Shown piece after piece: positions 28,620-44,097 of a stretch of DNA of 64,000 nt. Origin of the DNA: Bacteroidales bacterium (GTDB taxonomy: Bacteria > Bacteroidota > Bacteroidia > Bacteroidales > UBA932); NCBI GenBank assembly GCA_017630155.1, contig JAGBVU010000005.1:144342-208341 (forward strand), read 5' to 3'. Made by a program: the position numbers and the translations under genes. The notes beneath the pieces were generated by a model. That model was given only the letters and a program-made list of their open reading frames with translations. It was not told the DNA's origin and did no database searches. Position 1 is the stretch's first letter. Each line of letters opens with the position of its first letter.

Positions 28620-29153
28620 TCAGAACTCCAGACGGAAACCCTTGCTTTTGAGTTCCGCATATTTTTCCGGGTTGAAACTGTAGTTTATAGGGATCCTGCT
28701 TCCGGCATTTTTGGGTCTGGTCCCAACCTCAGTCAGAATGCCGAGCTTGAGCATCTTGTTTGAGAAATTCCTTCTGTCAAACTTCACCTCGAGAATAGAT
28801 TCATAAAGCTCCTGAAGCTGCGGCATCGTGAACACATCGGGGAGAAGTTCGAAACCGATAGGGGCAAAATGGATTCTCTCTTTCAAGGTCTTGAGGGCCA
28901 CTCTTAGAATTCTGTCATGGTCAAAGGCCAGCTGGGGAACCTCATCAATAGGAAACCATTGGGCATCGGCTGCATCATCTCCACCCTTTACTTCGCTCTT
29001 TTTTACCAGAGCATAATATGCAATAGTTATCACCCTCTCACGTGGGTCCCTGTTCACCTCGGAGAAACATCCGAACTGCTCCATGTAATGGGTATCAAGA
29101 CCGGTCTCCTCCATCAATTCTTGTAAAGAATGGATGATATTTTTCGTTACCAA
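28620..29153 (-). pseudogene. Nudix hydrolase / NrtR-like regulator, 5'-truncated
   Basis: The ORF begins inside the Nudix box (..LQELMEETGL), so the upstream Gx5Ex7 half and the N-terminal beta-strands are missing. A C-terminal winged-helix-like part is present. The first 8 codons lie in AT-rich foreign DNA and overlap the helicase ORF tail. Confidence 0.6.
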
Positions 29154-31698
29154 GATTAATAATGTATAAATTCTTTTTAGCTCTCGTGATGGCAGTGTAT
29201 ATTAGTTCAGGATAATTTTCAGCATCACTAGTTTTACTTGGCCGTTGTATTACAAGAAAAATATTATCTGCTTCCCATCCTTTGTAACTATAAATGGTTG
29301 ACAATTTTAGCATATTAGAACTCATCGTAAAATGAGTTTTTCTATTTGTACGAATCTCCTCTATTGCATTACGGAAGCATTTATCTTTTACGTCATTATA
29401 TTTATTTAAAATTATGTCGTACTCTTCCTTCGTTTCAAACACACTCATACTTGACTTTCCTGTAGATTGAGAATATGCGTACTGAATTTCTCGTAAAATA
29501 TCAACTCTTTGAGATAGTATGGCAGTTTTCTGGATTTCTAATTTATCATTATCTATGCAATGTAAAATACAATTGGCTATTGTGTCAGCACTGGCATCTA
29601 CTGACAAGTAATCATACCTTGGTACTTTGTTGTCAAATGACAATATTAATTCATTCTGCTCAATTTCATCAGGATTTTCAAAAAACTCATTTTGAAACTG
29701 AGACGCAAGATTCACGATATGCTGATTATTAAGCCTACGTCCCACTTTTAACCTATTCCAAGGGCCCCACGTTCTACCTCCTAAATTCGGTGTACTATTA
29801 AATGTTCGACGACAATAAACATCTTGCTTTTCATCTCCAAAAATAACAAGTTCTCCACCTTCTTTAAGGAAATTATTATAAAGAATGTGGTACCAATTAT
29901 ATTCATAGTCTTGGGCTTCGTCAATGAATATCGCAGAATACTTTGGAAGATTATCAACTACTTCACTGAAGAAGTTCAGTGTATTGTAAGATGTCAAATC
30001 TAATTTTAGATTATAATTTTTGGCCTGAGTAGTAATGAAGTTATGATAATTGGTAATTACAAATTTATTCCAAGGAAAATCAGCAGGAACACGTCCTATT
30101 CTATATCGGATATAGTTTGCCAATGTAATATTATAGGTTAGTATGAGTATACGTCCTCCTGTTCGCAGTTGAGATTTAACAGCACTGGATGCCAATATCT
30201 GCGTCTTACCCGATCCAGCAACGCCTTTAATTCTAATTTGTCGTCCGTCAAAGCTTTTTGCAAGTTCTCTTTGTCTTTTTGTTAACACAATTTCTCCGTC
30301 TCCCTCATTATATGAGTGCCATTGCATCGTAAGCATTTTTATGATTTCTGAGCTAGCTTCTTTTGTAAATTCTTTACGCGTGCGCTTGACATCTAAGCTA
30401 TATAATATTTCATTATTATTAAAATCTTCAGTTGATAGGGTTACAACTCCTGATATAATATTGGGATTATGAGCATCTTTCTTTTCACCTGCATATACTG
30501 AATCAATTGCTACTCTTGTACTATTTGTAAACCAAATAGCAGGGCGCACAATATACCAGCCTACATTTGACACTAAAGCCGCTTTTAACAATTGTGTAGA
30601 GTGTTGTTCTATAAGGTTTGTCCTGTACGTGTATACTCGAGACAGTGGAGATGGTATTGCTAATCCACCTCTTGATAACATCCCGTTATTCAATGTAAAT
30701 TGATCCAAATTTTCTGAAAACACATTGAGAATTACTATACCTTTTCCCGGCCTGATTAATACAATGTCTGGTTTGTCTCCCTTAAGATCAGGAGAAAGAA
30801 AAATTCGATCATTTTCACTGAGGGTACTGGATATTTTCCGATACACATTAAGAACATCTTGTGACACAAGACCATTTCTTACCATTGCATCAAGGTCGTA
30901 ATCATCATAAGCACCTTCATCTGTATAGTGACCTTCATGGACTACTGCAATAGAATTACTAGTGTTTTCAAAATAAAATCCTTTAGTTTTACAACTAAAT
31001 GTATGAAAAGTATCAGAGGTGACACCAAAACATGGGTCATAGATATCAGAAAACACAGATGTGTTATAGAAATATCTTGAAAATTCATCTATTCTTGAGC
31101 AATTGTCATTAGTCGGTCCAACACACACAACAAACTGCTTACCACGCGCATCTGCAACAATTTTTGCTGTCTTTTGCAATGAAATAGATATTATATCCAA
31201 TATATTTGAGAAAAGATGAATAGTCCCTGGTAGTGTAAGATTGAGCTCTGAAATCTGTGGCACCGGACTATCATTTGATGCAGGCAAGAAGTTCTGAATA
31301 CCTATAACTTCAACATTCCAGCCTTCTAATGCTTTAGATATATTTTCTACAGCCCTTGATAAGGCAATGGGAGATGGTTCTATGAGAGTCACTCTTTTAA
31401 GTCTTCTCAATAGATATGGATCTCGCGCATACAAACTATCCATCATACAAATAGTACCAATACCTTGCCCACACCCCCAATCGACAATTTCGAAAGTTGA
31501 TGGCAGTTCTTCATAAGGAAAGTTCTGCAATGCACTTAGGCATTTGCATTTATGCATTTCACCATATGCACATATATATGCGTTTAATTCATCAGTTGAC
31601 TTTAAAAGTTTTTTGCCATGATCAATATACGCCCATGGATTTCTCCTCCAGCTGAACGGCAATTCTAGCCTTGCTCTTTCAATAATACGGTCTATCAT
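29095..31698 (-). CDS. Fusion protein: class I SAM-methyltransferase-like domain, NERD/PD-(D/E)xK-like region, and UvrD/SF1 helicase
   Basis: Methyltransferase motif I VDWGCGQG (aa 72-79) with LIEPS after it. Strand pattern DIVLIRPGKGIVILNVF (aa 311-327). Walker A GVAGSGKT (aa 492-499), Walker B FIDEAQD (aa 591-597), and a UvrD_C-like end YSYKGWEADNIF...YTAITRAKKNLYIIN. AT-rich. Confidence 0.8.
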   Translation of the reverse strand: MIDRIIERARLELPFSWRRNPWAYIDHGKKLLKSTDELNAYICAYGEMHKCKCLSALQNFPYEELPSTFEIVDWGCGQGIGTICMMDSLYARDPYLLRRLKRVTLIEPSPIALSRAVENISKALEGWNVEVIGIQNFLPASNDSPVPQISELNLTLPGTIHLFSNILDIISISLQKTAKIVADARGKQFVVCVGPTNDNCSRIDEFSRYFYNTSVFSDIYDPCFGVTSDTFHTFSCKTKGFYFENTSNSIAVVHEGHYTDEGAYDDYDLDAMVRNGLVSQDVLNVYRKISSTLSENDRIFLSPDLKGDKPDIVLIRPGKGIVILNVFSENLDQFTLNNGMLSRGGLAIPSPLSRVYTYRTNLIEQHSTQLLKAALVSNVGWYIVRPAIWFTNSTRVAIDSVYAGEKKDAHNPNIISGVVTLSTEDFNNNEILYSLDVKRTRKEFTKEASSEIIKMLTMQWHSYNEGDGEIVLTKRQRELAKSFDGRQIRIKGVAGSGKTQILASSAVKSQLRTGGRILILTYNITLANYIRYRIGRVPADFPWNKFVITNYHNFITTQAKNYNLKLDLTSYNTLNFFSEVVDNLPKYSAIFIDEAQDYEYNWYHILYNNFLKEGGELVIFGDEKQDVYCRRTFNSTPNLGGRTWGPWNRLKVGRRLNNQHIVNLASQFQNEFFENPDEIEQNELILSFDNKVPRYDYLSVDASADTIANCILHCIDNDKLEIQKTAILSQRVDILREIQYAYSQSTGKSSMSVFETKEEYDIILNKYNDVKDKCFRNAIEEIRTNRKTHFTMSSNMLKLSTIYSYKGWEADNIFLVIQRPSKTSDAENYPELIYTAITRAKKNLYIINLGNEKYHPFFTRIDGGDRS

Positions 31699-32744
31699 AG
31701 TCCAATTATCGTTTCACTAATTGGTAAGTTTTTATGTCTCTTAAAGTTTTGGTTTGCTAATTCTTTCGAGGAATTAGCATAGCAATACTCACATTGATGG
31801 ATGCAGGTATTGTATTCTCCGATATCTTTGCTTTCTATGCAGCCACAAAACACTCTCTGACCTTTATCTTTCCTACCCTTTTTCTTTACAGCATATTTCC
31901 CATTACCAAGGTCTATAGCTCCATCAGGTATCTCACCAAATATACCAGTTTCTTCGATTGTTACCCCTAAATGCTGCATGAGCTCTATATCACGATGAGC
32001 AAGTCGTATAATGAGATCGTCATCAATACACTTATTATGACTTATACCATGTTGTTCTATATCAATTTTTTCTCCGCATGTGGCTAACTCGAACCCCCAC
32101 TTCTTATTTAATAGCGATAACTTTTTCGCAAAGTCATTCATTAAGTCAGGAGTCCATTCAATATAATTTATTCCACACTTTTTGAGGTTGGCTTCAACTT
32201 TCCTATATGAAGCAATATCAACAAAACTAAACACAAGTTTTTCCGTGTACCCTTTAAGATTATTACCGATATATTCTATTTTGCGTAATAAATCATCAAT
32301 ACTAATCTTATCAGTTAAAATCAATGGGTCAAATCTCCAGATAACCCGCCCTTTACCAAGAATTTTTACAAGTTCTTTAAATGTTTCTATTCTTGTATCT
32401 ACACTTGGAACTGACTTCTCCAATTCCTCTGAGACATAATCATTGAGTGTAAATTGAATGTAACAACCAATACCCTTATCTTGTAATTTTGATAGGTATG
32501 GAATCAGCGGTCGCGGATTTTTAGACCAGAATACTATAAATCGGGTATGCTTATAAGATATGTAGCTTTTTACTCCGTTAAAAGGATTAATCCAAGCAGA
32601 ATATCCTTTATCCAGTCTATGAAAAAACCAATCTGCATAAAATGCCGGTATATCTGTACTTCGGCTTGCTGACACTATGATGGGTTCCTGAGCAGGGACC
32701 ATTTCACCACTTTCCCTTGTTATATAAGGTTTAGAGTTGAGCAT
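31695..32744 (-). CDS. DUF1848-like protein with a C-terminal radical-SAM-type Cys cluster
   Basis: 349 aa. C-terminal CGC (aa 300-302) followed by CIHQCEYC, a CX3CX2C motif (aa 314-321). Its stop overlaps the helicase start (ATGA). The family name comes from recollection of PF08902 and was not verified. Confidence 0.65.
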   Translation of the reverse strand: MLNSKPYITRESGEMVPAQEPIIVSASRSTDIPAFYADWFFHRLDKGYSAWINPFNGVKSYISYKHTRFIVFWSKNPRPLIPYLSKLQDKGIGCYIQFTLNDYVSEELEKSVPSVDTRIETFKELVKILGKGRVIWRFDPLILTDKISIDDLLRKIEYIGNNLKGYTEKLVFSFVDIASYRKVEANLKKCGINYIEWTPDLMNDFAKKLSLLNKKWGFELATCGEKIDIEQHGISHNKCIDDDLIIRLAHRDIELMQHLGVTIEETGIFGEIPDGAIDLGNGKYAVKKKGRKDKGQRVFCGCIESKDIGEYNTCIHQCEYCYANSSKELANQNFKRHKNLPISETIIGL

Positions 32745-32821
32745 TTACAAATATTTTATTTAGATTTTAGCTGAATACGCCACCACAATTACCGCATTGA
32801 CTCTATTGTCAATGTGCTATA

Positions 32822-32829
32822 CAAAGTTA
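32822..32829 (-). promoter_or_regulatory. -7 box TAACTTTG (minus strand) for the DUF1848-helicase operon
   Basis: Reverse complement of caaagtta, about 78 nt upstream of the ATG at 32744. Confidence 0.4.
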
Positions 32830-32915
32830 CATAAATTATAATATCCTAACAAAACCACCTTTTCAACCATCTTACCCAACTTTACAACCCTATCACAACA
32901 CTCACCCCTCTTTTT

Positions 32916-33515
32916 TTACTCCACCAAAAACACTCTACTCTCTTTGTTGTGTGCTTTGGCAATCATCATGTCTTTTATTTTTGCTTGGAAGTCATCTTCT
33001 GGTGTGTAATCATTGAGTATGGCCAGGCATTTGTCAAATTCACCGATCTCTCTATACATTTCAGATCTGAACAGAGGATTCCCAATAAAGATTGGCTGGC
33101 CTAAACTTTTCACTATGATTTCCCTCAGCAAATCTAAATGTTCTGGTTCGGCCTCAATTTCACTATGGCGTATCTTGTCGTTGAAAGCCCACACGACTAT
33201 CATAGTTAGAAGTTCCAGATTACTGATTTCAGTATCGTAAAGTTCACTGTATGCCTCTACGGCTTCTTCGAACATCAACCAACCTAGTTCAGATGAGTAC
33301 GTGTTACCATTTTCAAATTTGGCTTCGCGCAAATAGAAGTAATGCCCGCAAAAAGAGCATTTCTGAACAGGTGACACTCGGGGCAGCATAGGCGCAATTT
33401 GGCGCATATCAGACCAAAGCATTGCATCGCATGTGTTTCCGGACATCAGTTGGAAAATCTCATTTTTGCCCCCACAGTGGGGACAAACAGCAAGTTTACA
33501 AAAAGCAGGAAGCAT
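32916..33515 (-). CDS. Zinc-ribbon protein, unknown function
   Basis: CPHCGG ... CSFCGH pair at the N-terminus and a helical C-terminal half. No family recognised. Confidence 0.55.
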   Translation of the reverse strand: MLPAFCKLAVCPHCGGKNEIFQLMSGNTCDAMLWSDMRQIAPMLPRVSPVQKCSFCGHYFYLREAKFENGNTYSSELGWLMFEEAVEAYSELYDTEISNLELLTMIVVWAFNDKIRHSEIEAEPEHLDLLREIIVKSLGQPIFIGNPLFRSEMYREIGEFDKCLAILNDYTPEDDFQAKIKDMMIAKAHNKESRVFLVE

Positions 33516-33661: not shown

Positions 33662-33796
33662 TGAGTGCCATGACAATTTTCAACATTTTTACTTAAAAAA
33701 AATAGCCATCATCGCTCCTGATGAAAGCTCTTTTGATCTGTAATCAGCAACTATATTTCCCCGAATTTTCTTAATTCCCCGTTTTTAGGGTTTAAG

Positions 33797-34672
33797 TTAT
33801 TCCTCCTGTTCGTAATAATACGAGTAATCGATGCCCTTCATGAAGGTTTCGCGGTCGTGGATTTTGTCTGTAAGAGCTGATGCGAGAAGTTTGTGGATAG
33901 GGGTGGGGTTGACTACGCTGGTCTGCATGGCCTGGAGGTAGTCGTTTTTGTTGATTTGGCTCCAGTCGACACATCTCTGTAAGCGTTTTTTGAGGATGAG
34001 GTCGAGCCATATACGGGTGGAGCGGCCATTGCCTTCCATGAATGGATGGGCGACGTTCATTTCTACGTATTTGTCAACGATCTGGTCTAATGTATCTTCC
34101 GGCATTGATTCTATCTTCTGCAGTTCGTGTGGGAGATATTCTGCAAGGCAGAAAGTGAATCCTCCTTTGCTGATGGTCTTGTTGCGGATTTGACCGGCAA
34201 AGTCGTAGAGACCGCCGAAGATGTAGGCATGAATCTGCTGCAGGGACTTTATTGTTCCAACATCTTCATATGCCACGAGGTTGCTTTCCATGAAGGTGTA
34301 TGCCTTCTTCTTACTTTTGCCGTCTATTGTGTTGTCACTGTATGTGAACCAGTCGAGGAATGCATTTGCTCTATTGTTCGGATAGTGCTTAGCGAGGATT
34401 TCCACACATTCATTGTCAAGAGCATCTGCAGTTCGCTTCTTTCCGTCAGGAGCCTCAAATTTGAAGTCGTGAGTGATACTCACGAGTTGAACTCCATCTG
34501 CGTTCAGTTTCTTCTTCAGCCAACGCCAATAGTTTCCAGCCTTGACATAGTCATCTCCCTTATTGATTGCACGGACGATGTCAATCGCAGAAAACCACCA
34601 CTTGGAATTGATTTCATCCCAAATGGCTCTGACCTCGCGGTCATTGAAGAATCTGATGAATATCTTACTCAT
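33797..34672 (-). CDS. Bro-N domain / Fic (AMPylase-type) family protein
   Basis: N-terminal Bro-N-like pattern (FNDREVRAIWDEINSKWWFSAIDIVRAI). Canonical Fic motif HPFMEGNGRSTR. Confidence 0.85.
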   Translation of the reverse strand: MSKIFIRFFNDREVRAIWDEINSKWWFSAIDIVRAINKGDDYVKAGNYWRWLKKKLNADGVQLVSITHDFKFEAPDGKKRTADALDNECVEILAKHYPNNRANAFLDWFTYSDNTIDGKSKKKAYTFMESNLVAYEDVGTIKSLQQIHAYIFGGLYDFAGQIRNKTISKGGFTFCLAEYLPHELQKIESMPEDTLDQIVDKYVEMNVAHPFMEGNGRSTRIWLDLILKKRLQRCVDWSQINKNDYLQAMQTSVVNPTPIHKLLASALTDKIHDRETFMKGIDYSYYYEQEE

Positions 34673-34804
34673 AGAAGCAAAGGTACTAAATTTATAGCAC
34701 GGGACCTATATGTTCTCTAAATATCTCACCGCAATTCCCTGAGACTTGGCGTAGGTAATTTCGTTACGGGTGCTTTCGTGCAAAACAGTGTCGAGGACAG
34801 ATGG

Positions 34805-35278
34805 CTATGGAGAAATTATAAAACAAAGAGCCGTCATCGCTCTGACATTTTTATCTGTAACTCGCAACAAATTGCGGTAATGTGTCCAAGATAGTATTTG
34901 GGATTTTCCACTCACTGTGTGGAAAATCTCAGTGAAGAACTTATAAAACTCAACAAACTGATAGAGATTGCTCTTTGTGAATCCCTTACCATATACATTC
35001 GTGAGGTGATCGGCAAGTCGTTTGATAATTTCCTTACCATACTCAACTCTATTCACTCCCTGCAATTCTTCATCAACAATACGCTTACCCAACAGCCAAT
35101 TACGCTGTACCATAGCCACATTAACGGCGTGATATGCATAATTGCGTGTTTGTTCAATGATATTCTGTGAATCCTTAAAAATATCACCTGTATTGCTAGC
35201 CTTTAGTATCTCTATGTCTTGTTTCATAATGCAGAGATATATACTTTTGTCGAAATGAGACACATACAATGATTCCAT
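34805..35278 (-). pseudogene. 3'-truncated copy of the DUF1016/YhcG-type PDDEXK nuclease gene
   Basis: The first ~148 codons are near-identical to the N-terminus of 44174..45289. The nuclease half is absent, and the reading frame runs into unrelated sequence. Confidence 0.85.
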
Positions 35279-35336
35279 CTAGTAGAACAAAACGGCCCAG
35301 ATCTTTAACGAATCTGGGCCTATTTTTTTATTTATT
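34847..35336. repeat. ~490 bp direct repeat, copy 1 (pairs with 44857..45347)
   Basis: About a dozen mismatches over ~490 bp by eye. It includes the nuclease gene 5' half, its upstream region, a hairpin terminator and the last 9 nt of the 45339..47390 gene. Confidence 0.9.
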
Positions 35337-35521
35337 GCCTTCGTGCAAAACGGAGTCCAGCATAGATGGCCCTAGATAGGCCTCTGATCACGATTCCGCT
35401 GGACACCTGAACCATTTAGCTCGGTTATCCAAGCCAACGCCATTCACAACTCCTTGTAAAGCACTTTAGACTGGACAATTACTAGTAGGCTCATATGAAA
35501 AGTACTATAATTATATATCTA

Positions 35522-38500
35522 TCATTTCAATAAACTTATCTCATCAGTAGACATTCCAACAATCTGTAATAATGTGATCATATCATCTGTATTTGTTGCC
35601 CATAGAGTCGGCTCATGTTGGAAATTATGCTTACACAACTCATTCCACTTAGAACGTTCAGATTCAAGAGAAGCAGACAAGAATAAGAGCTTACAATTAG
35701 TATTTCTAGAATCACGGCTTTCAATCATAGATTCTTTTCTTACAAATGCATCAGACTTCTTATCCATTTGCTGGAGCAATTCATTGACATCAGTGTATCT
35801 GCGGTCAACATACGGATAATTTTCCTCACCCACCACATGCTTGTAAATAGAAAAGCCCTTCAATCTTGACCATAATGCGTTGATTAATGTCTCTTTAAGA
35901 GTATTCTTGAACTTAATTATCTGATCTTCACTTATATTGTACTGATTCTTGAACATTGAAGACAACCTAATCTCCTTAGTTATACTATCTTTCTGTTCTT
36001 CAAAGTATGAATCAAGACAAGGGTTAGATATCAATGATAGGAACGGTTCTCTATTCATTGGCTCAATCTTCACACTTTCCTCTTCTTCAGCACGCCAAAC
36101 CTTAAGATTACCGACATACGATTTCATACCGTTATACTTAGTATGAAGATTCTTTGACAATTTGGAAAGAGAGTCAATAATCATACCGGCAACATGGGTC
36201 TTGATATGTATTATATCTATCTCCCTAGTCCTCTTTGTTATCTCGTCAGTTATTCTGTCTAATCGATGTTTGTAATCCTCATCCAGATCCACTTTCTTAT
36301 GTTTCCTTTGTTTAGACCACAAAGCGAAGACGAGAGAGCCTACGACTAACAAACCGTAAACGATATAACTCACAGTACTAAATAACACATCCTCTACTGA
36401 TTCACTATACGAGCACACTAAAATAAATGTCAACAGGATAGTTGCAGCCACACCCCAGAACACCCATTTTGTAACCTTAGTTTTCTTATCAAAAGCCTCA
36501 AGCTGCACAGTACGCTCTTCATGAACACGTTCCTTTGAAGAATGCAAGTCGCGTTTTTCCATCTCAAGACGCTTAATAGATCCGTCGCAAATAGAATTTC
36601 TCGTCGCATTGTTTCCAAGAAGCTGCGTCAAAGTATTATATTCAACCGTTTTTGCACTGAATTTGGTACTGAGTGTTGCCAGATTTACCTTTTCTTCCTC
36701 TATAAGATTCTTCAATATCGCTGCCTTAATCTGGGAGTTTGACATATCGAATGATATTGTTGTCTTATTGTCCTTTCCTCCTACCGTGAGTTTATTGTCT
36801 GAAATCTGAGTAATAATACAAGCAATATTCATCAGACTCGGATCAGCTATGTAAGAATATGGTATATAGCAATATCCTCTATCACCAAATCTTGTTCCCC
36901 ATGAATTCCTTACAATGAAGATCTTCTCCTCCTCACTGTAACCACAGAGAATCATCGCATGATTTCCACTTTCCCCAGAAATCTCTTCAGAGGTTGGTCG
37001 AGAAATGAATCCCTCTACTGGCTCGAATGAGTCATAAATCTTCAATGATATTGCTACAGGGTATCCTTCAGAAATTGCTGATTTTATATCATCAAGGGTG
37101 CCCTTTACATTCAACGCCTTAATTATCTTGTTACTCTGTGCATCATCATAGGCCTCTTGCGAAGGATTTATATCTAATGTTTCCGAATACGGACAGAAAC
37201 GTTCATGGCAAACACCCTTATCAGTAATTGAAGATATTACTTCAAAGAGAGAACTTCCTGTATCTTCTTTCTCCTTATTGTTGGCTTTGCGCACATTATA
37301 GTAAACAAAGCTCTCACTCAAATCTGGCTCGCTTATACTATTCCTTTTAAGGATATATTCGAAAATGCCGACAATTGAGAATGCAGAACATGCACCAATT
37401 TCACCCTGATCTTTAATCGTAGTAAAGAACGGTCTCAAATCCACCTTTGCAGGAAGATTTGTCTTTGGAACATAATCCTCAGAACAAGGAATTTCAGTAA
37501 CATTCGCCTGCAGCTGGTACGTTTTACCCTCAAAAACAAAACCGTCACGAGTTAATCTCTTCTGGCTTTCAGTATTATCTTTTATTAAAACCTCTACCCC
37601 CTCTAATTCCTCTGACTTATGACGAATGTAATTTGAAGACTCCCTCATCCTAACCTTGATCGCCTTCACATCATCTATAATCGCACTCGCAGATGCCACT
37701 GCTGTCTTTGCTGAACCTGAAAGTGCTGCATACTCTGCAATAGACTCTCGTTCTGTTTTCTCTGTAGCAACGTCTGTTTCTTCTATCGACGTTGTAGGAT
37801 ATAGCGCAGCTAGATTATTATTCAATTGAACAAACAAATCTAGCACTTCCCTAGCACAGTCATCAATTACAAGTTGACGCTTATTGAACATATATCCAGT
37901 CAATAAATCGTCATCCTCGCCTAAAAGTTGAGCTAATGTCGCCTTCTTCTCTGGCAAAGACAAGTTATCGTCATCGACAAAAGACTGGAAGACATCAGTC
38001 AAACGTTGAACCTCGGTCTGAAGTTCCGGATGTATCTGAGCTATTATTTCATCTTGTTGTTCTCCCCTATCAAGTCTCGCCTTTACAGATTTATTATAGA
38101 AAGAGGTAAATATCTCTACATTCTCTTTCAGAATCTTTTGTACAATCTGAGAGACCTTATTTACATCTACCTCTTCTTGGCGTACCTTTTCCCTATCAAG
38201 GATATTGATATAGGCTTTATGCAATAGATATTGCACAAAGTAATACTTGTCAAAACTTAGAACAGAGAGGCCTAGTGCATGTATCAATCTATCCTCCGAC
38301 TCTGCAGCAGGATTAAATAGTTCCTGATAATGATTTAAGGAAAGAAGAGTATATTCTCCAATGATTCTCACAAAGGACTCAAGCACCAGATTCAATGCAA
38401 CTCCCGCAGAGTTACAGTTCTGCAATAGAATCGCATGCGCTATCTGTCTTTGAGTTTTATTGAATTCAATGATTTCATTGATGGTCTTCTTAGTCTGTTG

Positions 38501-39025
38501 TTGGTACTCATTTACCTTAAGAGGCAACAAGTCGGCATCCTTCTCGAACAGATAGGCAAGATCGTAAGGAAGCAACAAAAGGTCAACATTGTAGTTCTGC
38601 GGGATTGCATTTATTGCTCCTAAAAACTCCTTGATTGTTGACCAACACTTTGCATCATATGTCTTCAGGTGAAAACACACATGCAATGATGTAGAATCTC
38701 CAGGATTGTTAATCGTTACTTGACGATTATATAATTCAGAGTAAAAGCTCTTCAAATACTCGCTTCTATTCGCTGCCGGGATACGATATTTCTCAACAGA
38801 CTTTACTGAGTACAAGTTATCAATACCTGCAACAAACTTACTGGCATCATCTAGAGCAGGTATGGCCTCATAAAAAATAGAGTCTCCTTCCCGCTTGTCA
38901 TCAAATAATATGGCACGAAAAAAATCCGTCGACTTTTCATTACCATACTTAATGATGTACTCCTGAAGATTGCAAAGCATCTGCTCGGCATTACTGCCGA
39001 GCATTATATGCACCGTGTGTCTCAT
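35522..39025 (-). CDS. Multidomain membrane protein: degenerate tubulin-like N-domain, papain-like (C1) cysteine peptidase, coiled coil, 2 TM helices, C-terminal domain
   Basis: Peptidase C1 triad motifs KDQGEIGACSAFS (Cys546), GNHAMILCGY (His689), VRNSWG (Asn707). TM helices at about aa 853-875 and 884-903. The N-terminus aligns by eye to the GTPase of the upstream gene but has lost the glycine loops. Confidence 0.8.
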   Translation of the reverse strand: MRHTVHIMLGSNAEQMLCNLQEYIIKYGNEKSTDFFRAILFDDKREGDSIFYEAIPALDDASKFVAGIDNLYSVKSVEKYRIPAANRSEYLKSFYSELYNRQVTINNPGDSTSLHVCFHLKTYDAKCWSTIKEFLGAINAIPQNYNVDLLLLPYDLAYLFEKDADLLPLKVNEYQQQTKKTINEIIEFNKTQRQIAHAILLQNCNSAGVALNLVLESFVRIIGEYTLLSLNHYQELFNPAAESEDRLIHALGLSVLSFDKYYFVQYLLHKAYINILDREKVRQEEVDVNKVSQIVQKILKENVEIFTSFYNKSVKARLDRGEQQDEIIAQIHPELQTEVQRLTDVFQSFVDDDNLSLPEKKATLAQLLGEDDDLLTGYMFNKRQLVIDDCAREVLDLFVQLNNNLAALYPTTSIEETDVATEKTERESIAEYAALSGSAKTAVASASAIIDDVKAIKVRMRESSNYIRHKSEELEGVEVLIKDNTESQKRLTRDGFVFEGKTYQLQANVTEIPCSEDYVPKTNLPAKVDLRPFFTTIKDQGEIGACSAFSIVGIFEYILKRNSISEPDLSESFVYYNVRKANNKEKEDTGSSLFEVISSITDKGVCHERFCPYSETLDINPSQEAYDDAQSNKIIKALNVKGTLDDIKSAISEGYPVAISLKIYDSFEPVEGFISRPTSEEISGESGNHAMILCGYSEEEKIFIVRNSWGTRFGDRGYCYIPYSYIADPSLMNIACIITQISDNKLTVGGKDNKTTISFDMSNSQIKAAILKNLIEEEKVNLATLSTKFSAKTVEYNTLTQLLGNNATRNSICDGSIKRLEMEKRDLHSSKERVHEERTVQLEAFDKKTKVTKWVFWGVAATILLTFILVCSYSESVEDVLFSTVSYIVYGLLVVGSLVFALWSKQRKHKKVDLDEDYKHRLDRITDEITKRTREIDIIHIKTHVAGMIIDSLSKLSKNLHTKYNGMKSYVGNLKVWRAEEEESVKIEPMNREPFLSLISNPCLDSYFEEQKDSITKEIRLSSMFKNQYNISEDQIIKFKNTLKETLINALWSRLKGFSIYKHVVGEENYPYVDRRYTDVNELLQQMDKKSDAFVRKESMIESRDSRNTNCKLLFLSASLESERSKWNELCKHNFQHEPTLWATNTDDMITLLQIVGMSTDEISLLK

Positions 39026-39029
39026 AGAC

Positions 39030-41771
39030 CTATAGATGTTTCTTTACGTAATCGAGTTCCAAAGTTATAAGCTCTCTGATTCTCTCAAATCCCTTTGCCT
39101 TTATTTGGTCCTTTGTCATATTTATCTGAGAGTAAGCATTCAGATAGTTAGCCTTCGCAGCAGATATTATCTTTAAAACAGCCTCCTGCCCCTTTTGAGA
39201 AACAAGGGTTTCAATAATATCAGTAAACTCTTTCAATATCACGGCCTTGTTCCTTCTAAACTCATCATAAGCCTCATCGCGATATTTGCCCAAATCTACC
39301 CAGTTATCATCCAGAGTATCTCCTAGTTCCTGACTCTGGAACTGATATGTACCATTGTCATTTCTCACAAGGCCAAAAATAAAGCCCTTAACCCACATTT
39401 CAAGTAAATCGTCATCAGAAGCCCTCTTAGGAACAATAGCATACTCTTCTCTTACCATTCTTGTCAACATATTATTGTCGAAATGGCAGTTTACATTACA
39501 ATCCTCATATTCTCTCTTGTATTCCTGAATTGATGAGATTGCGTATGCCGGAACTACACCAACCTGTCTATAGATGATGATTCTATCGTTCACGCCGATG
39601 TTTGCAAAATCCACATCCGCAGTACCATGTATCTTACCCTTGAAATAGTTGTCCTTAAAGAGACGACTCGTTGCTTTATTTGGTACACCCACATAGAAAC
39701 TATCTCTAGGATTTTCCTTTGGAGCATAACCTCTATAATTGTATCGGAACAATGGCATAGACTTCTTGACTGCCAATTCTACAACATGCTTGAAATCGTC
39801 TTCTGACAATTTATCAATTATCTGATCAATTGTTGTCTCTGCCAATGACTTTGCGACATGAGTGCGTGATGTATAACGCAAGAGCATATCCTCTACCTCT
39901 CCTGAAGACAACTCATGGAATCCGTATATTTTTCCTTCATTGATTAGTGTCCTTACAAAATCCGAAATCTGGATATCATCCTGCTTAACAGACACTTTTG
40001 ATGCCGCTTCTAGGGCAAGGTCGATCTGGAAAGTACGAGAAGTCTTACCCACACTGTTCTGGATCTTTGAAAGATCAGATGTAAACTTCTTATATATACC
40101 ATTAAGAGTGCTATGTATAACCTTCACTTTATCCTCAGCAATCTGAAGCATTGACAGAATATTGTTAAACACAGTGAGCGCAGAGGTCCTACGAACGATC
40201 TCTCTCTGACATACCACAAGCTGCCTTACCGCATCAGCCACATCTGTAGCTCTATCCTCTAAAGTCGACGACTTCTTAAAGAACTTGGAGTCATATTCTT
40301 TAAGATCCGCTACTGCGGTTTCCATCGCAGTTCTCAGCCTTGGCTCCTTGTCAACAAAGTCTTCTTTCTCTTTCTGCATCTCTCCGATGAAGAGATTTAC
40401 CTGAGTACGAATACCCTCAATAATTTTTGCCGCAGTTGAAACACCACACTCTTTATTGATATTTGCCACCAAGAGTTCACGAAGTTCCTTCCTAACTCTT
40501 GATGTCAAAGTAGTAATCTTAGGTGACACGAATTCATCAGCCAACTGCTGAGCTGCAATGTACTGCTGGATTTCAGGAGTTGGATTAGCATACTCGTTGA
40601 TAGTGATATCATACTTTGGATTCTTATCAGCAATGAAATCAATAACGTGGTCATTATTATTGTTTTCTCTGATATTCACTTTCTCAGAATCAATCCAAGA
40701 GTTTACAATCACATCAATATCCTCACATGTATTTTGTAATCTCTCAATGAGACTCTTTGCTGCCTTGATTGAATATATCTTACTAATTGACGAACTCTTG
40801 TAAAGAATCTCGCAAACACCCATACCTGCAGCCCATGCCTTTTTGTTCTCAATATCCATTGAGCCTTCTGCAATATTCTTCTCAAGGTTATCACTCACAC
40901 TCGCTGATGCAGTGGACAGCTCTCCTGCTGAGGTAACCAGAGCAAGACTTATCATCTCGGTCAGTTCATCAATATGAGTATACGAATCATTATTCTCATT
41001 CTTATTATCAATGAAAACGACCGAATTGAATGGTCGCTCTTTTATCTCATAACTATCTCTTATGTACTCCAATTTGACAGGAGTAGATCCAATACCCATA
41101 TGCATGAGATAGTCAAGATCCTGAATTGCACCATATGCATTTGGTGCAACTTTTGCCATACCTGAATTAGACATCGACTTGAACACATCCGGAAGGACCG
41201 CATAACCTGTAAGTTTGCATCCCGGAGCCTCCTTACGAAGCAGATATGCCATATTTAAGAAAGTGCCACATCCTGTTCCACCACACACAGAGAATATCAT
41301 ATGAATCTCTGTATCTGAGCCCAAGAGCTCATACTTATCGTTATTGATTATTCTTGCATTTGTAATCTGGTCAAGAATGCTTCTAATCTTCTGCGCTACC
41401 TGAACATAATTAACTGTGAATGCAAATCTTCCATTTGTCCTTACCTGTCCTGCGCCCTGATTCAGGGAAGACAATGCATACAAGTTCTTATCTGGCACCC
41501 AAGAAAAGTACTCCTTATTCACATCATATATAGGTCGAGGATCTCGAACAATAATAGGAAGCTGCTCATTTGGCAAAAGGGAAATTTCCTCACCCGTTGT
41601 AGATGGGAGAGTCTTCTTATATTGATTTCCATCTGTATCAATACCCATGAAGCCGATCATAGGTGGAACCTCACCATATGTATCAACGAACATCTTCTTT
41701 GTGTGAAGAAGCGCATTCATACCTGTACCACCCATTCCGACGTACAGGCATCTTTTAATTTTTGAGCCCAT
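39030..41771 (-). CDS. Tubulin/FtsZ-superfamily GTPase-like protein with a long helical C-terminal extension
   Basis: T1-like GMGGTGMNA (aa 12-20), T3-like NQGAGQVRTNG (aa 104-114), and T4 signature-like CGGTGCG (aa 163-169), in the correct order. 913 aa. Confidence 0.7.
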   Translation of the reverse strand: MGSKIKRCLYVGMGGTGMNALLHTKKMFVDTYGEVPPMIGFMGIDTDGNQYKKTLPSTTGEEISLLPNEQLPIIVRDPRPIYDVNKEYFSWVPDKNLYALSSLNQGAGQVRTNGRFAFTVNYVQVAQKIRSILDQITNARIINNDKYELLGSDTEIHMIFSVCGGTGCGTFLNMAYLLRKEAPGCKLTGYAVLPDVFKSMSNSGMAKVAPNAYGAIQDLDYLMHMGIGSTPVKLEYIRDSYEIKERPFNSVVFIDNKNENNDSYTHIDELTEMISLALVTSAGELSTASASVSDNLEKNIAEGSMDIENKKAWAAGMGVCEILYKSSSISKIYSIKAAKSLIERLQNTCEDIDVIVNSWIDSEKVNIRENNNNDHVIDFIADKNPKYDITINEYANPTPEIQQYIAAQQLADEFVSPKITTLTSRVRKELRELLVANINKECGVSTAAKIIEGIRTQVNLFIGEMQKEKEDFVDKEPRLRTAMETAVADLKEYDSKFFKKSSTLEDRATDVADAVRQLVVCQREIVRRTSALTVFNNILSMLQIAEDKVKVIHSTLNGIYKKFTSDLSKIQNSVGKTSRTFQIDLALEAASKVSVKQDDIQISDFVRTLINEGKIYGFHELSSGEVEDMLLRYTSRTHVAKSLAETTIDQIIDKLSEDDFKHVVELAVKKSMPLFRYNYRGYAPKENPRDSFYVGVPNKATSRLFKDNYFKGKIHGTADVDFANIGVNDRIIIYRQVGVVPAYAISSIQEYKREYEDCNVNCHFDNNMLTRMVREEYAIVPKRASDDDLLEMWVKGFIFGLVRNDNGTYQFQSQELGDTLDDNWVDLGKYRDEAYDEFRRNKAVILKEFTDIIETLVSQKGQEAVLKIISAAKANYLNAYSQINMTKDQIKAKGFERIRELITLELDYVKKHL

Positions 41772-41782
41772 TGTGTTATTAT

Positions 41783-42712
41783 TTATGATATTACTATTTT
41801 TGATTTACTACCTGTCTGGATATTCTCCAGAGTATATTCCTGTGCTTTTTTCAGAATACGAGAATCGACCATAAAGTCCTTTCCTTGTCGTATTCTAATG
41901 CTGCTCTTATCCCTTGGTTCAAAAGCGACATCAGATGTCCATCTCGGATCAACTACAAACTTCGTTTCACCAACAAAGGTCTTCTCAAAGAATCCTTGTT
42001 TTGCCTTATCTTTTGATGATGTCAGAATAACTTTATGAAATCCTCGTGCTCTAACTACATTGGAAAACTGATCGCTCTGAATACTGATATTTCCGATTTT
42101 AAAAGTTGGAAAGAAAATCGGCTTGAGAATAAAAATCCAAACTAGCAATGCGATGATAATTCCCGAAAAGCTAAATGTCATTCCCTCTGCTAAAGGATTC
42201 CATACTTTCTTCTTTTCCGCGGTTACTTCCATCAAAGCAGTATTATCATCATTGAACTGAGAAGGATCCGTGTCGTTAATTCTATCAAGTCCTCCATCTT
42301 CAAGAACTTTGATATACCAATAATGAACTTTACTTTCTGCACCTTTAGTAAACACAACCCCTACTGTAAGCTTTTCAGTTGTAGGAGGGACTGTTATAGT
42401 ATTGCCATCTACCTGCTGCTTATCAACAAATAGCTGCATCTCATTCTCCATAACTTGAACATAACGACCAGAGTCATTCTTCTTAAAGATACCAAGTACC
42501 AATGGCTCACGCATATGATTCCTTGAATCCTCATTGAAATCAAAGCATATAGTCTTTGTTAATGTATCAGGGACATGCTTCTTCCACAAGAAATCATCAT
42601 ATACTTTAGAACGTCCCCACGAAGTAGATGGGAGTTTTGTCTCCGAATCACATCCTATCGCTAAAAATAAGACTAGCGAAACTAAGAAAGCAAACTTTAT
42701 TTTAGAGCACAT
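41783..42712 (-). CDS. Lipoprotein with C-terminal TM helix, unknown function
   Basis: Start moved to the ATG at 42712 (MCSKIKFAFLVSLVLFLAIGC, lipobox). Hydrophobic helix FSGIIIALLVWIFILKPIFF near aa 190-210 of that form. Confidence 0.6.
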   Translation of the reverse strand: MCSKIKFAFLVSLVLFLAIGCDSETKLPSTSWGRSKVYDDFLWKKHVPDTLTKTICFDFNEDSRNHMREPLVLGIFKKNDSGRYVQVMENEMQLFVDKQQVDGNTITVPPTTEKLTVGVVFTKGAESKVHYWYIKVLEDGGLDRINDTDPSQFNDDNTALMEVTAEKKKVWNPLAEGMTFSFSGIIIALLVWIFILKPIFFPTFKIGNISIQSDQFSNVVRARGFHKVILTSSKDKAKQGFFEKTFVGETKFVVDPRWTSDVAFEPRDKSSIRIRQGKDFMVDSRILKKAQEYTLENIQTGSKSKIVIS

Positions 42713-43715
42713 AGAACGACACGGTTTTTTCTGGTTTGTTAATAAGCTGAACTCTTGTAGATTCATCAAGCAATCGCGTGTTTTTATGAGGACCATCCGT
42801 TGAGACAGGAGTCATTTGCAATGTAATATCATTATATGATTCCCAGCTCATTGCCATTATATCCGACTTTGAACGTTTGAATTTAGGATGTACCTCAAAT
42901 GAATAATTTTCATCCATGGTCACAACCTCATCAATCTCTATATAAGGATTATCTTCTGTCTTGAAATGAACTTGATATCCAGGCTGCACATCACCGCCAT
43001 ATGACGAGAACTTCACAGATTTTGGTTCGCCATACTCGTCACGTACACTTATGACAAGACCTATTCCCTTAGTCGCACTTACATTCAGCTGTCGGATATC
43101 ACCTATACCTGACATATCGCCATCCGAAAGATCAACTGTTTCAAAATTACATATCTCCTTAAGTTTGATAATCAGGTCCCCATTCTCTTTCGCGGCATCC
43201 GTCAAAAGGATATAGTAACCATACACATCCTTCGATTTCGCAATCTGACACCAATTATCAAGGATATGCTTCAATTTGTTAGGATCAACATTATCTACTC
43301 CATCCGTCATTAGCTTCATAATATCAATCTTATCCGTAGTAAAGATTTTATCAATCGCATGCTGCAGCGGGGCAGAGATGTTTGTATTGGTAATATTGTC
43401 GTTTTTGTATGCTTTAATTTTTGATTTGAGATTAGCTTTTCCCTGAGGAGTTGCAAACTCTTTCCAAACGTCACAATACTTTGAATTTTGGAAAGGCACA
43501 ACTACGATTTCTGTTCTCTCATTAGTAATAGACTCAATATCTTTAATCATTGCAGTCACCACCTTGTCATAAATATTCGGAGAGCCGTTATATCCTTTCA
43601 TTGATAAAGTAACATCCCAAAGATATGTCATACGGATATCTTTGTATGAATCACTTCTTGCTGTGCCTGCTATTAAGGCAAACATCAAACAACATAAATA
43701 CTTAGTGTTTTTCAT
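42702..43715 (-). CDS. Secreted von Willebrand factor A (vWA) domain protein
   Basis: Signal peptide MKNTKYLCCLMFALIAGTARS. MIDAS-like DVTLS (DxTxS) at aa 34-38 and the downstream LMTDG motif. C-terminal beta-rich domain. Confidence 0.7.
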   Translation of the reverse strand: MKNTKYLCCLMFALIAGTARSDSYKDIRMTYLWDVTLSMKGYNGSPNIYDKVVTAMIKDIESITNERTEIVVVPFQNSKYCDVWKEFATPQGKANLKSKIKAYKNDNITNTNISAPLQHAIDKIFTTDKIDIMKLMTDGVDNVDPNKLKHILDNWCQIAKSKDVYGYYILLTDAAKENGDLIIKLKEICNFETVDLSDGDMSGIGDIRQLNVSATKGIGLVISVRDEYGEPKSVKFSSYGGDVQPGYQVHFKTEDNPYIEIDEVVTMDENYSFEVHPKFKRSKSDIMAMSWESYNDITLQMTPVSTDGPHKNTRLLDESTRVQLINKPEKTVSFYVL

Positions 43716-43914
43716 AGAAACGCATTATAATATACCATTAAAACGAAAGCGTGGCGCTGAAGCTTATCTAACTGACTGGTCCTAGGAATAACCGCGTGAA
43801 TAAATAAGCGACAACCCCACGCCGTAAATCCGGATTGGATACGACGAAGGAGCGAGCTTATCCTCTTCACTTATGAATTTCCTAGGTTCGTCAGTGAGAA
43901 CAAACTACACTTTC
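43716..43914 (-). other. ~200 nt GC-richer structured insert between the promoter and the vWA gene, flanked by an 11 bp direct repeat
   Basis: gtgtttttcat occurs at 43705-43715 and 43915-43925. Nested complementary arms: aaacgaaagcgtg / cactttcgtgttt and ctgac..cctaggaa / ttcctagg..gtcag. Confidence 0.5.
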
Positions 43915-43935
43915 GTGTTTTTCATCATGTATGTG

Positions 43936-43943
43936 CAAATATA
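43936..43943 (-). promoter_or_regulatory. -7 box TATATTTG (minus strand) upstream of the four-gene operon
   Basis: Reverse complement of caaatata. It ends about 8 nt before the ATGATG of the 7-codon upstream ORF. Confidence 0.4.
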
Positions 43944-44056
43944 AATATTTATCCGTTTATAAACGAATAAATACGGATTTATTCCTCACTTAAAGAATAT
44001 TACATAAATCATCTCATTGCTGTCCGGTAAGTTCCGGACAGCAATGAGTCTCCTAA

Positions 44057-44097
44057 TAAAAACAAAGAGCCATCATCGCTCCTGATGACAGCTCTTT
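44057..44097 (-). terminator. Hairpin terminator after the DUF1016 gene; sequence shared with 33703-33741 and half of it with 34822-34845
   Basis: On the minus strand, aaaagagctgtcatcaggagcgatgatggctcttt is followed by gtttttatt. Confidence 0.6.

Follow-up and report, generated by a model that had tools for sequence, protein, structure and literature searches.

A low-GC cassette of two coupled genes interrupts an NrtR gene

Within a 64,000-nt stretch of contig JAGBVU010000005.1 from a Bacteroidales genome (the window, to which all coordinates refer), we analysed two adjacent minus-strand genes that encode a 349 aa protein of the DUF1848 family (P0001) and an 867 aa helicase fusion (P0002). 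Together they are probably an undescribed nucleic-acid-modifying system involved in conflicts with phages or mobile elements. The genes had been picked out in an initial reading of the DNA made without database searches (the sequence-only reading), which described them as AT-rich and translationally coupled. Indeed, their GC content is 34–37% at 29–33 kb compared with 44–52% in the flanking host DNA. The junction sequence (GGA CTA TGA / ATG ATA GAC) confirmed the ATGA overlap of stop and start codons, and operon coupling of the two genes is supported (Table 1).

The initial reading also held that the module had inserted into, and truncated, a Nudix/NrtR-like gene. This was correct, since a genome of the same genus (G007, locus L119) has the empty site and an intact NrtR gene. 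There, NrtR is a 243 aa open reading frame (ORF) that is 99% identical to the remnant in the window and lies directly after a homologue of the 199 aa ORF that precedes the cassette. Identity between the window and G007 runs through the 199 aa ORF, stops at 32917 (its stop codon) and restarts at 29114 inside NrtR, and the intervening DNA of the window stands in place of 547 nt in G007 that include the 5′ end of NrtR. Based on these breakpoints, both genes arrived as a single block with their own 172 nt leader. The truncated gene still matches Pfam NrtR_WHD and NUDIX, and covers positions 72–230 of 245 in the NCBIfam NtrR profile.

One point of the initial reading required correction: the helicase ORF runs into NrtR-derived DNA, from which its final six codons and stop (DGGDRS*) are read. 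The natural end of this ORF was therefore lost, and its homologues terminate in ...FFQNYI or similar. A search of 7 same-genus genomes did not find the helicase fusion, and no relative of it was found in 23 other same-family genomes; one weak same-family match (G016, E 8.4e-4) spans helicase-core residues 485–574 only. DNA of the cassette is present in animal gut and faeces metagenomes of several studies, and no RNA dataset was listed as containing it.

Table 1. Features of the cassette and its insertion site (window coordinates)
Feature	Position	Strand	Basis
Inserted cassette, 3,802 nt, low GC, absent from same-genus genome G007	29115..32916	-	blastn and alignments against G007 locus L119
Non-coding leader of the cassette, 172 nt, upstream of the DUF1848 gene	32745..32916	-	sequence
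Weak sigma-70-like site in the leader, TTGAAA-17-TATTAT	32866-32838	-	consensus scan, 10/12 matches
DUF1848 gene (P0001, 349 aa), predicted radical-SAM-like beta/alpha barrel Fe-S enzyme	31695..32744	-	Pfam PF08902, AlphaFold2, VIA
Codons of family-invariant cysteines C223 (32076-32078) and C239 (32028-32030)	32028..32078	-	alignment A2
C-terminal cysteine cluster C300-G-C302...C314-x3-C318-x-Y-C321	31782..31847	-	alignment A2, motif count
ATGA stop/start overlap of the P0001 and P0002 genes	31695..31698	-	sequence
Helicase-fusion gene (P0002, 867 aa)	29095..31698	-	ORF call
Class I SAM-methyltransferase-like domain, P0002 residues 1 to ~250	30949..31698	-	alignment A1, profile matches of relatives, Atlas
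PD-(D/E)xK (NERD-like) fold domain, P0002 residues ~258-460	30319..30927	-	AlphaFold2, VIA, alignment A1
UvrD-type SF1 helicase core, P0002 residues 471-858, all motifs intact	29125..30288	-	Pfam, alignment A1
Right junction: end of helicase ORF and TGA stop read from NrtR DNA (Nudix-box EETG region)	29095..29114	-	G007 alignment, sequence
Remnant of truncated NrtR gene (Nudix tail and winged helix), insertion-site marker outside the module	28620..29114	-	Pfam, NCBIfam

The helicase fusion joins a methyltransferase-like domain to a degenerate nuclease fold

To define the domains of P0002, 26 homologues with identities down to 38% were aligned end to end (alignment A1). The N-terminal part had been assigned to the class I S-adenosylmethionine (SAM)-dependent methyltransferases from motif I (VDWGCGQG), which is invariant across the alignment, and E107 in motif II (LIEPS) is nearly so (at least 90% of sequences). 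The invariant residues are Y41, Y45, GEMH46–49, K52, DWGCGQ73–78, P108, FSN163–165, D168, R202, T227 and C236, of which Y41, Y45, GEMH and K52 form a signature of this domain family. As the initial reading had noted, there is no (D/N/S)PP(Y/F) motif IV; the corresponding conserved stretch is HLFSNILD. P0002 itself had no Pfam methyltransferase match. Its relatives showed weak matches to Methyltransf_31 and Methyltransf_23 (P0314, 29.6 bits compared with the Methyltransf_31 cut-off of 27; P0354, 26.0), and the nearest named clusters in Atlas are methyltransferases (scores 0.92–0.95).

The middle domain has the fold of a nuclease and lacks its catalytic residues. An AlphaFold2 model of residues 258–470 (predicted local distance difference test, pLDDT, 86) adopts the PD-(D/E)xK fold, and structural comparison with VIA gave VC1899 (Z 9.9), Can2 (Z 9.6) and McrC (Z 8.3), with nearly all of the 50 matches listed being PD-(D/E)xK nucleases. 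This bears out the proposal of a NERD-like region in which the usual ExK is replaced. The P310-D311 motif is retained and the (D/E)xK position reads N-V-F in P0002. Among the 26 homologues it reads N/D/K/T/S/G-x-F/L/C/N, the lysine being absent from all and the acidic residue not conserved, so the catalytic (D/E)xK is lost family-wide. P0002 did not match Pfam NERD (PF08378) at E 0.01 or better; the PADLOC candidate model C3a187 ('NERD+UvrD') matches from residue 287.

The C-terminal half was described from the outset as a complete UvrD-type superfamily 1 (SF1) helicase, and both its motifs and Pfam scores above the cut-offs agree (UvrD_C_2, 35.1 vs 27.4; AAA_19, 32.4 vs 25.1; UvrD-helicase, 31.7 vs 23). 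Invariant in the alignment are GSGKT, DEAQD, FGDxxQ, R655, R736, KGW and YTAITRA (Y834/T838/R839). Divergence peaks between the nuclease-fold core and the helicase, where mean pairwise identity is 29% compared with 46–47% in the methyltransferase-like and helicase parts. Searching solved structures with the P0002 sequence returned nothing meaningful, and NCBIfam gave generic helicase fragments only for P0002 and no model for P0001.

From this domain evidence, P0002 is a NERD-UvrD helicase-nuclease minus its nuclease chemistry, plus a methyltransferase-like head. The lineage that acquired the methyltransferase-like domain and DUF1848 is exactly the one that lost the nuclease residues, which suggests that modification replaced cleavage as the effector.

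The DUF1848 protein resembles radical SAM enzymes

The initial reading called P0001 DUF1848-like, and a hidden Markov model search placed it firmly in this family: the match to Pfam DUF1848 (PF08902) covers profile positions 1–262 of 262 (E 1.1e-92, 311.1 bits compared with a cut-off of 30.5). P0001 also matches the PADLOC accessory model RTasDUF1848 (E 9e-39). The C-terminal motif CGC-x11-C-x3-C-x2-C, whose radical SAM spacing had drawn attention to the protein, is present as described. Among the DUF1848 ORFs of related loci it recurs in 74 of 77, and the three exceptions are cut or broken. The motif is therefore not due to chance, but it belongs to the whole DUF1848 family rather than being special to P0001.

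Next, helicase-linked copies (56–65% identical to P0001) were aligned with members of a stand-alone clade (35–40% identical), giving 39 DUF1848 sequences in total (alignment A2). Of 41 invariant positions, seven are cysteines (C223, C239, C300, C302, C314, C318 and C321). The triad C314-x3-C318-E-Y-C321, invariant in all 39, has the radical SAM spacing together with the usual aromatic residue, and C223, C239, C300 and C302 are candidate ligands of a second cluster. The position of the triad is atypical for radical SAM enzymes, being C-terminal and not after strand 1, and the loop after strand 1 in DUF1848 (SASR-TDIP) is cysteine-free. DUF1848 copies are 56–65% identical while their adjoining helicase partners are only 34–45% identical. 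Two relatives are annotated 'DNA repair photolyase' by the Joint Genome Institute (JGI).

The AlphaFold2 model of P0001, built from alignment A2, is a beta/alpha barrel (pLDDT 91.5, predicted template-modelling score 0.90). In an exhaustive VIA comparison, radical SAM enzymes made up 17 of the top 18 matches, with Z 8.0–9.9 and root-mean-square deviations of 3.2–4.9 Å over 156–216 residues. These were led by MqnE (Z 9.9; 3.6 Å over 201 residues) and HemN (Z 9.2), followed by HydG, spore photoproduct lyase and BioB (each Z 9.0), and Elp3, NifB, pyruvate formate-lyase (PFL)-activase, Cfr and viperin (Z 8.0–8.8). Generic TIM barrels came next in the list (Z 7–7.9). The model is thus a barrel whose best matches are radical SAM enzymes, but their margin over generic barrels is modest. 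Most of the radical SAM alignments start, in the target, after its N-terminal cluster loop. The VIA ranking, this alignment pattern and the cysteine-free strand-1 loop point to a radical-SAM-like barrel in which the cluster-binding triad appears to have moved to the C-terminus. Judged from the model and the conserved cysteines, DUF1848 is probably an iron–sulphur (Fe-S), radical-SAM-like enzyme. Complex prediction of DUF1848 with the methyltransferase-like domain (residues 1–285) scored 0.21, which is below the mark and counts neither way.

DUF1848 and the helicase fusion are conserved as a pair

The initial reading would have been weakened had the two genes not been paired elsewhere. Roughly 200 related loci were examined in all; these are the best-scoring subsets of larger match lists, and the counts describe those samples and not the whole family. 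In a scan of one genome per species, P0002 had 361 relatives. Most belong to Bacteroidales of the gut or rumen, and a few come from Clostridia, Helicobacter, Lactobacillales and Desulfovibrionaceae. Arrangement was scored in the 76 loci with the NERD-UvrD-fusion architecture among the best 80. DUF1848 lies directly upstream on the same strand in 67 of these, upstream at a larger gap in five and downstream in one; it is absent from the flank in two (L016 and L051) and its position could not be judged in one. The pairing is therefore conserved. In agreement, three distant homologues likewise have DUF1848 immediately upstream.

Spacing is also tight. The helicase ATG follows the DUF1848 stop at a distance of no more than 10 nt in 62 of 71 loci; a gap of 2 nt is the most common, and the genes overlap in 11 of the 71 (by 4 nt in six, 1 nt in four and 11 nt in one). 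There is no conserved third gene, as the commonest Pfam family among 132 flanking ORFs occurs five times. Instead, families linked to defence and mobile elements abound in the flanks (AAA_15/AAA_21, T5orf172/MUG113, RhuM, Schlafen AlbA_2, Fic, WYL/WCX, integrase, transposase and relaxase).

Copies were also seen on contigs labelled as phage. A full DUF1848 plus methyltransferase-NERD-helicase pair lies on an unverified 'Bacteriophage sp.' contig from human faeces (L224, MT836254.1). A 735 kb uncultured phage genome (L226, LR756501.1) encodes a DUF1848 protein 40% identical to P0001, with no methyltransferase-like neighbour within 6 kb.

The conserved partner of DUF1848 is the methyltransferase-like domain

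The methyltransferase-like domain is not confined to the NERD-UvrD architecture, and 1,087 representative clusters carry it. Its fusion partner was tallied in 38 long relatives outside the NERD-UvrD type: a superfamily 2 (SF2) DEAD helicase (of the DpdF/PsyrT kind) in 20, an SF1 Upf1-like AAA_11/AAA_12 helicase in 11 and a UvrD-type helicase in seven. DUF1848 adjoins the DEAD-type fusion in all four loci recovered and the Upf1-like fusion at locus L140. It has also been reported adjacent to the UG25 methylase-reverse transcriptase fusion (PMC9226505). Since DUF1848 stands beside DEAD, Upf1-like, UvrD and UG25 fusions, the conserved dyad is DUF1848 plus the methyltransferase-like domain, and the motor varies. 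The adjacency to SF1 helicases anticipated in the sequence-only reading was thus real, but its true conserved partner is the methyltransferase-like domain and not SF1 helicases as such.

In a few relatives, the methyltransferase-like domain occurs with REase_MTES_1575, PIN_4, HEPN_Swt1, BspA-type LRR, Sel1 or WG-repeat partners. Such forms of the domain were noted at L075:9529-11361 and L027:4517-5302 and in proteins P0364, P0314 and P0307, sometimes as a second copy ~1 kb downstream of a DUF1848-helicase pair.

DUF1848 also occurs on its own. In one family, from another class of the same phylum, 51 of 63 genomes carry a stand-alone clade (L120–L139, genomes G061–G337) that lacks a methyltransferase-like neighbour within 7 kb. 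Its flanks vary (aldehyde dehydrogenase, cytochrome b561, TPR, FrhB-like and HsdM), and it has the look of a housekeeping core gene.

A sister four-gene system shares its first slot between DUF1848 and AlkB-like genes

In a genome of the same order (L134, 2897-8071, minus strand), DUF1848 is the first gene of a four-gene operon. It is followed by an SF1 helicase of 347 aa, a 2CompART/2CompARG protein (ADP-ribosyltransferase plus glycohydrolase, ART/ARG) and a 501 aa protein with the methyltransferase-like domain at its end. The same last three genes occur at a metagenome locus (L142, 619-5458, plus strand), where the first gene encodes an AlkB-like 2OG-FeII_Oxy_2 dioxygenase. Identity between the two loci is 37% for the helicases (E 1e-61), 25% for the ART/ARG proteins (E 7e-33) and ~29% for the methyltransferase-like proteins. 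AlkB enzymes take off base methylation oxidatively and require oxygen.

The first slot was then scored in 80 metagenome loci (L144–L223), judging only those with enough upstream DNA. It holds DUF1848 only in ~36 loci, an AlkB-like gene only in 13, both in five and neither in none. Strict mutual exclusion of DUF1848 and AlkB was considered and rejected, because of the five loci that have both. Three AlkB-only contigs are marine or TARA by name and one DUF1848-only contig is from human gut, an anecdotal fit to an oxygen-related split. The ART/ARG fusion is itself a writer/eraser pair, which fits a writer/eraser theme.

The four-gene system is widespread, with 542 relatives in the metagenome scan, and its methyltransferase-like protein is ~485–500 aa. 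PADLOC names none of its components except the AlkB-like dioxygenase (CARF_2OG).

The cassette lies next to a second variable region

The 199 aa ORF upstream of the cassette (32916-33515) was considered as a third component and rejected, since it is present at the empty site in G007. It is conserved beside NrtR there (93% nucleotide identity) and is therefore a host gene rather than part of the cassette. It had no family match and one sub-threshold zinc-ribbon match.

Beyond it, a second block of ~10.3 kb (33742-44060) is also absent from G007. This block encodes a Fic protein (33797-34672; PDC-S04/NmFic-like), a truncated DUF1016_N copy (34805-35278), a 1,167 aa Peptidase_C1 protein (35522-39025), a 913 aa Tubulin_2 protein (39030-41771), a 337 aa protein without a family (41783-42796) and a weak VWA-like protein (42702-43715). 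The cluster of protease, tubulin-like and VWA genes in this variable island may be another conflict system. At the far edge of the variable region lies a full-length YhcG/DUF1016 PD-(D/E)xK gene (44174-45289; PDC-S02 type), so PADLOC candidates PDC-S04 and PDC-S02 are both neighbours of the cassette in the window. The G007 DNA matches window positions 44198-44061 and then jumps to 33741, so the repeated DUF1016 sequence may mediate cassette exchange at this hotspot.

Comparison with known systems

The initial reading did not recognise a named system. In agreement, PADLOC (2023) matched the pair only to accessory or candidate models, RTasDUF1848 and C3a187, and its further matches (GajB, AbiO and mad2) were weak. 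A literature search for DUF1848 and such gene combinations returned no description beyond the UG25 note (PMC9226505). We rate the pair as a probable helicase-based conflict module with an unusual effector.

The Class 1 UG/Abi reverse transcriptase system UG25 likewise combines a DUF1848 gene with a protein that has an N-terminal methyltransferase domain, and DUF1848 beside a methylase fusion is thus already known (Mestre et al. 2022, PMC9226505). The UG25 enzyme is a reverse transcriptase, whereas that of the cassette is an SF1 helicase with a degenerate nuclease domain; as to the defining domain of defence-associated reverse transcriptases (DRT), P0001, P0002 and the neighbouring ORFs scanned have no reverse transcriptase domain. 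The methyltransferase domains of UG25 and P0002 need not be homologous.

The rest of P0002 compares best with NERD-UvrD proteins (PADLOC C3a187, and plasmid examples such as that of Leclercia pLEC-000f), which have the same order of PD-(D/E)xK domain and SF1 helicase. Residues 283–864 align with these proteins (E 1.5e-42 to C3a187; 28–32% identity to plasmid proteins). A plasmid relative that is 28.7% identical over this range keeps PD...EVK (IVEVKD), whereas the P0002 family has lost (D/E)xK. The NERD-UvrD proteins also lack the N-terminal methyltransferase-like domain, and no DUF1848 partner was present in the one plasmid locus inspected (L227). The UvrD-like SF1 core is common to P0002, Gabija GajB and Nhi-type helicases, and many weak GajB matches were obtained (E from 2.5e-13 upward). 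However, this similarity is limited to generic helicase motifs, the cassette has two genes only with no GajA (OLD-family ATPase-nuclease) neighbour, and P0002 did not match the Nhi model. Unlike restriction-modification systems, the pair has neither methyltransferase motif IV nor intact nuclease residues.

DUF1848 shares with radical SAM enzymes such as MqnE, HemN, spore photoproduct lyase and BioB the CxxxCx(aromatic)C motif and extra cysteines that would suit an auxiliary cluster, and its predicted beta/alpha barrel resembles their core. It differs from them in the C-terminal placement of its triad, in that P0001 has no PF04055 match at E 0.01 or better and in that SAM-binding motifs were not identified. 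With AlkB-family dealkylases (2OG-FeII_Oxy_2) it shares an operon slot beside the same helicase, ART/ARG and methyltransferase-like genes, but fold and cofactors are unrelated and the equivalence is one of gene context, with both present in five loci.

Proposed function and alternative explanations

Our leading reading, which we hold tentatively, is that the two genes of the cassette form a self-contained conflict module, one that moves horizontally, is most likely aimed at phages or other mobile DNA and acts by modifying nucleic acids rather than cutting them. We are quite confident that it is a mobile conflict module, and we favour nucleic-acid modification as its chemistry. The SF1 helicase would load onto and unwind the target nucleic acid, with the PD-(D/E)xK domain, its catalytic (D/E)xK gone, serving as a binding or recognition module only. 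The fused methyltransferase-like domain may then write a SAM-dependent base modification on the exposed strand. In DUF1848, the C-terminal CxxxCxYC would hold a [4Fe-4S] cluster and the four other invariant cysteines a second cluster. As the obligatory partner of the methyltransferase-like domain, DUF1848 might process or remove the mark by radical chemistry, filling the role of the AlkB-like Fe(II)/2-oxoglutarate dioxygenase in the sister systems. Such an enzyme would suit strict gut anaerobes, because a radical enzyme would need no oxygen. The most economical reading is a writer that is delivered by the helicase to exposed nucleic acid, with DUF1848 supplying partner chemistry on that substrate, most likely to process or erase the mark. 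That DUF1848 acts specifically as an eraser or dealkylase is doubtful. In its boldest form, the proposal makes DUF1848 an equivalent of AlkB for anaerobes, a nucleic-acid dealkylase of the radical SAM type that needs no oxygen. The methyltransferase-like domain would write a toxic or signalling base methylation on strands that the helicase exposes, and the two together would form a new class of writer/eraser immune module with reversible base modification in place of a nuclease. As a whole, we consider this unlikely, though the chance is a real one.

Several observations weigh against a radical-SAM-type, nucleic-acid-modifying defence module. P0001 did not match Pfam Radical_SAM (PF04055) at E 0.01 or better, PDB searches with P0001 and with the DUF1848 profile found no sequence-related solved structure, and Foldseek searches of the PDB with the P0001 model returned weak generic TIM-barrel matches only. 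The VIA scores of radical SAM enzymes (Z 8–10) are only modestly above those of generic barrels, and the triad, being C-terminal, may instead bind a cluster that is auxiliary or structural. The methyltransferase-like domain has no nucleic-acid methyltransferase motif IV, (D/N/S)PP(Y/F/W). Loci L016 and L051 carry the helicase fusion without DUF1848 in the flank. Conversely, the large, core-like stand-alone clade indicates that the DUF1848 enzyme can do without a methyltransferase-like partner, and the five loci with both AlkB-like and DUF1848 genes indicate that these two are not simple equivalents. Finally, the published defence-island scoring for UG25 was inconclusive and a defence role for UG25 is unproven (PMC9226505).

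The same data can be read in other ways. A SAM-binding domain beside a radical-SAM-like enzyme on a DNA motor could form a self-marking, restriction-like system, in which the methyltransferase-like domain and DUF1848 would install a hypermodified base on host DNA (methylation followed by radical or oxidative elaboration) and the helicase would police unmarked incoming DNA. The defence-rich neighbourhoods are consistent with this, as is the dioxygenase in the first slot of the sister system, since dioxygenases can elaborate marks as well as erase them. However, neither an active nuclease nor any other killing domain is present in the pair, the (D/E)xK being lost family-wide, and it has no target-recognition subunit and no (D/N/S)PP(Y/F) motif; moreover, a modification enzyme tied to a translocating helicase would be an odd means of marking a whole genome. 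We think self-marking unlikely. The missing nuclease could instead be DUF1848 itself, if it were a non-radical TIM-barrel enzyme (a nuclease, lyase or glycosylase) whose Fe-S or zinc site is structural or senses DNA, and which supplies the cutting lost by the NERD domain, perhaps at marked bases. The lack of a Radical_SAM match at E 0.01 or better would fit, as would the loss of the helicase nuclease residues exactly in the family that gained DUF1848 and the likeness of its barrel, among the weaker matches, to non-radical TIM barrels including the AP_endonuc_2 type. We nevertheless regard this as quite unlikely, given that CxxxCx(aromatic)C is the radical SAM signature, that radical SAM enzymes take 17 of the top 18 places in the structural comparison, and that interchange with an AlkB-like oxidative enzyme fits base chemistry better than hydrolysis.

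A housekeeping or stress-related DNA/RNA repair module, combining a repair helicase with a damage-reversal enzyme and having no conflict role, would account for the company of UvrD-type helicases and AlkB, which are repair proteins, for the JGI label 'DNA repair photolyase' on some relatives and for the core-like stand-alone clade in one family. It is made improbable by the patchy distribution of the pair, which was not found in the 7 congeners searched, by its location in a low-GC insertion that destroyed a host gene and by flanks rich in defence and mobile-element genes. Also against it are the divergence of the region from nuclease fold to helicase (29% vs 46–47% mean identity) and the promiscuity of the methyltransferase-like domain, which is fused to HEPN, PIN, REase domain and ART/ARG partners. 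The sequence-only reading had left the choice between a nucleic-acid modification system and immunity by a nucleotide-derived effector. The former fits the comparative evidence, namely the three helicase families fused and the alternation or combination of DUF1848 with AlkB-like genes; nothing points to the latter, in which DUF1848 would make a chain terminator or signal from a nucleotide, as viperin does, with the helicase fusion sensing infection. Radical SAM antiviral enzymes are a known precedent and viperin is among the VIA matches (Z 8.1), but viperin matches are no better than those of many other radical SAM enzymes and the pair lacks a nucleotide kinase or receptor-effector partner. 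Polymer substrates are indicated by the obligate link to the methyltransferase-like domain and to three helicase families and by the AlkB alternation, and we consider a nucleotide-derived effector very improbable.

Implications

DUF1848 is a large and strongly conserved family that is now tied to a methyltransferase-like domain on three helicase families and to a slot shared with AlkB. This context gives a testable hypothesis, namely that methylation is coupled to Fe-S or radical chemistry on the bases of nucleic acids. If this is correct, it would be a defence or conflict mechanism with reversible base modification in place of a nuclease, and it might explain how strict anaerobes perform the chemistry that aerobes carry out via oxygen-dependent AlkB. 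Should DUF1848 prove to be an anaerobic dealkylase, the stand-alone clade would be a previously unrecognised anaerobic repair enzyme for alkylation damage. As the cassette is abundant in gut and rumen Bacteroidales, it bears on phage–host dynamics in those microbiomes.

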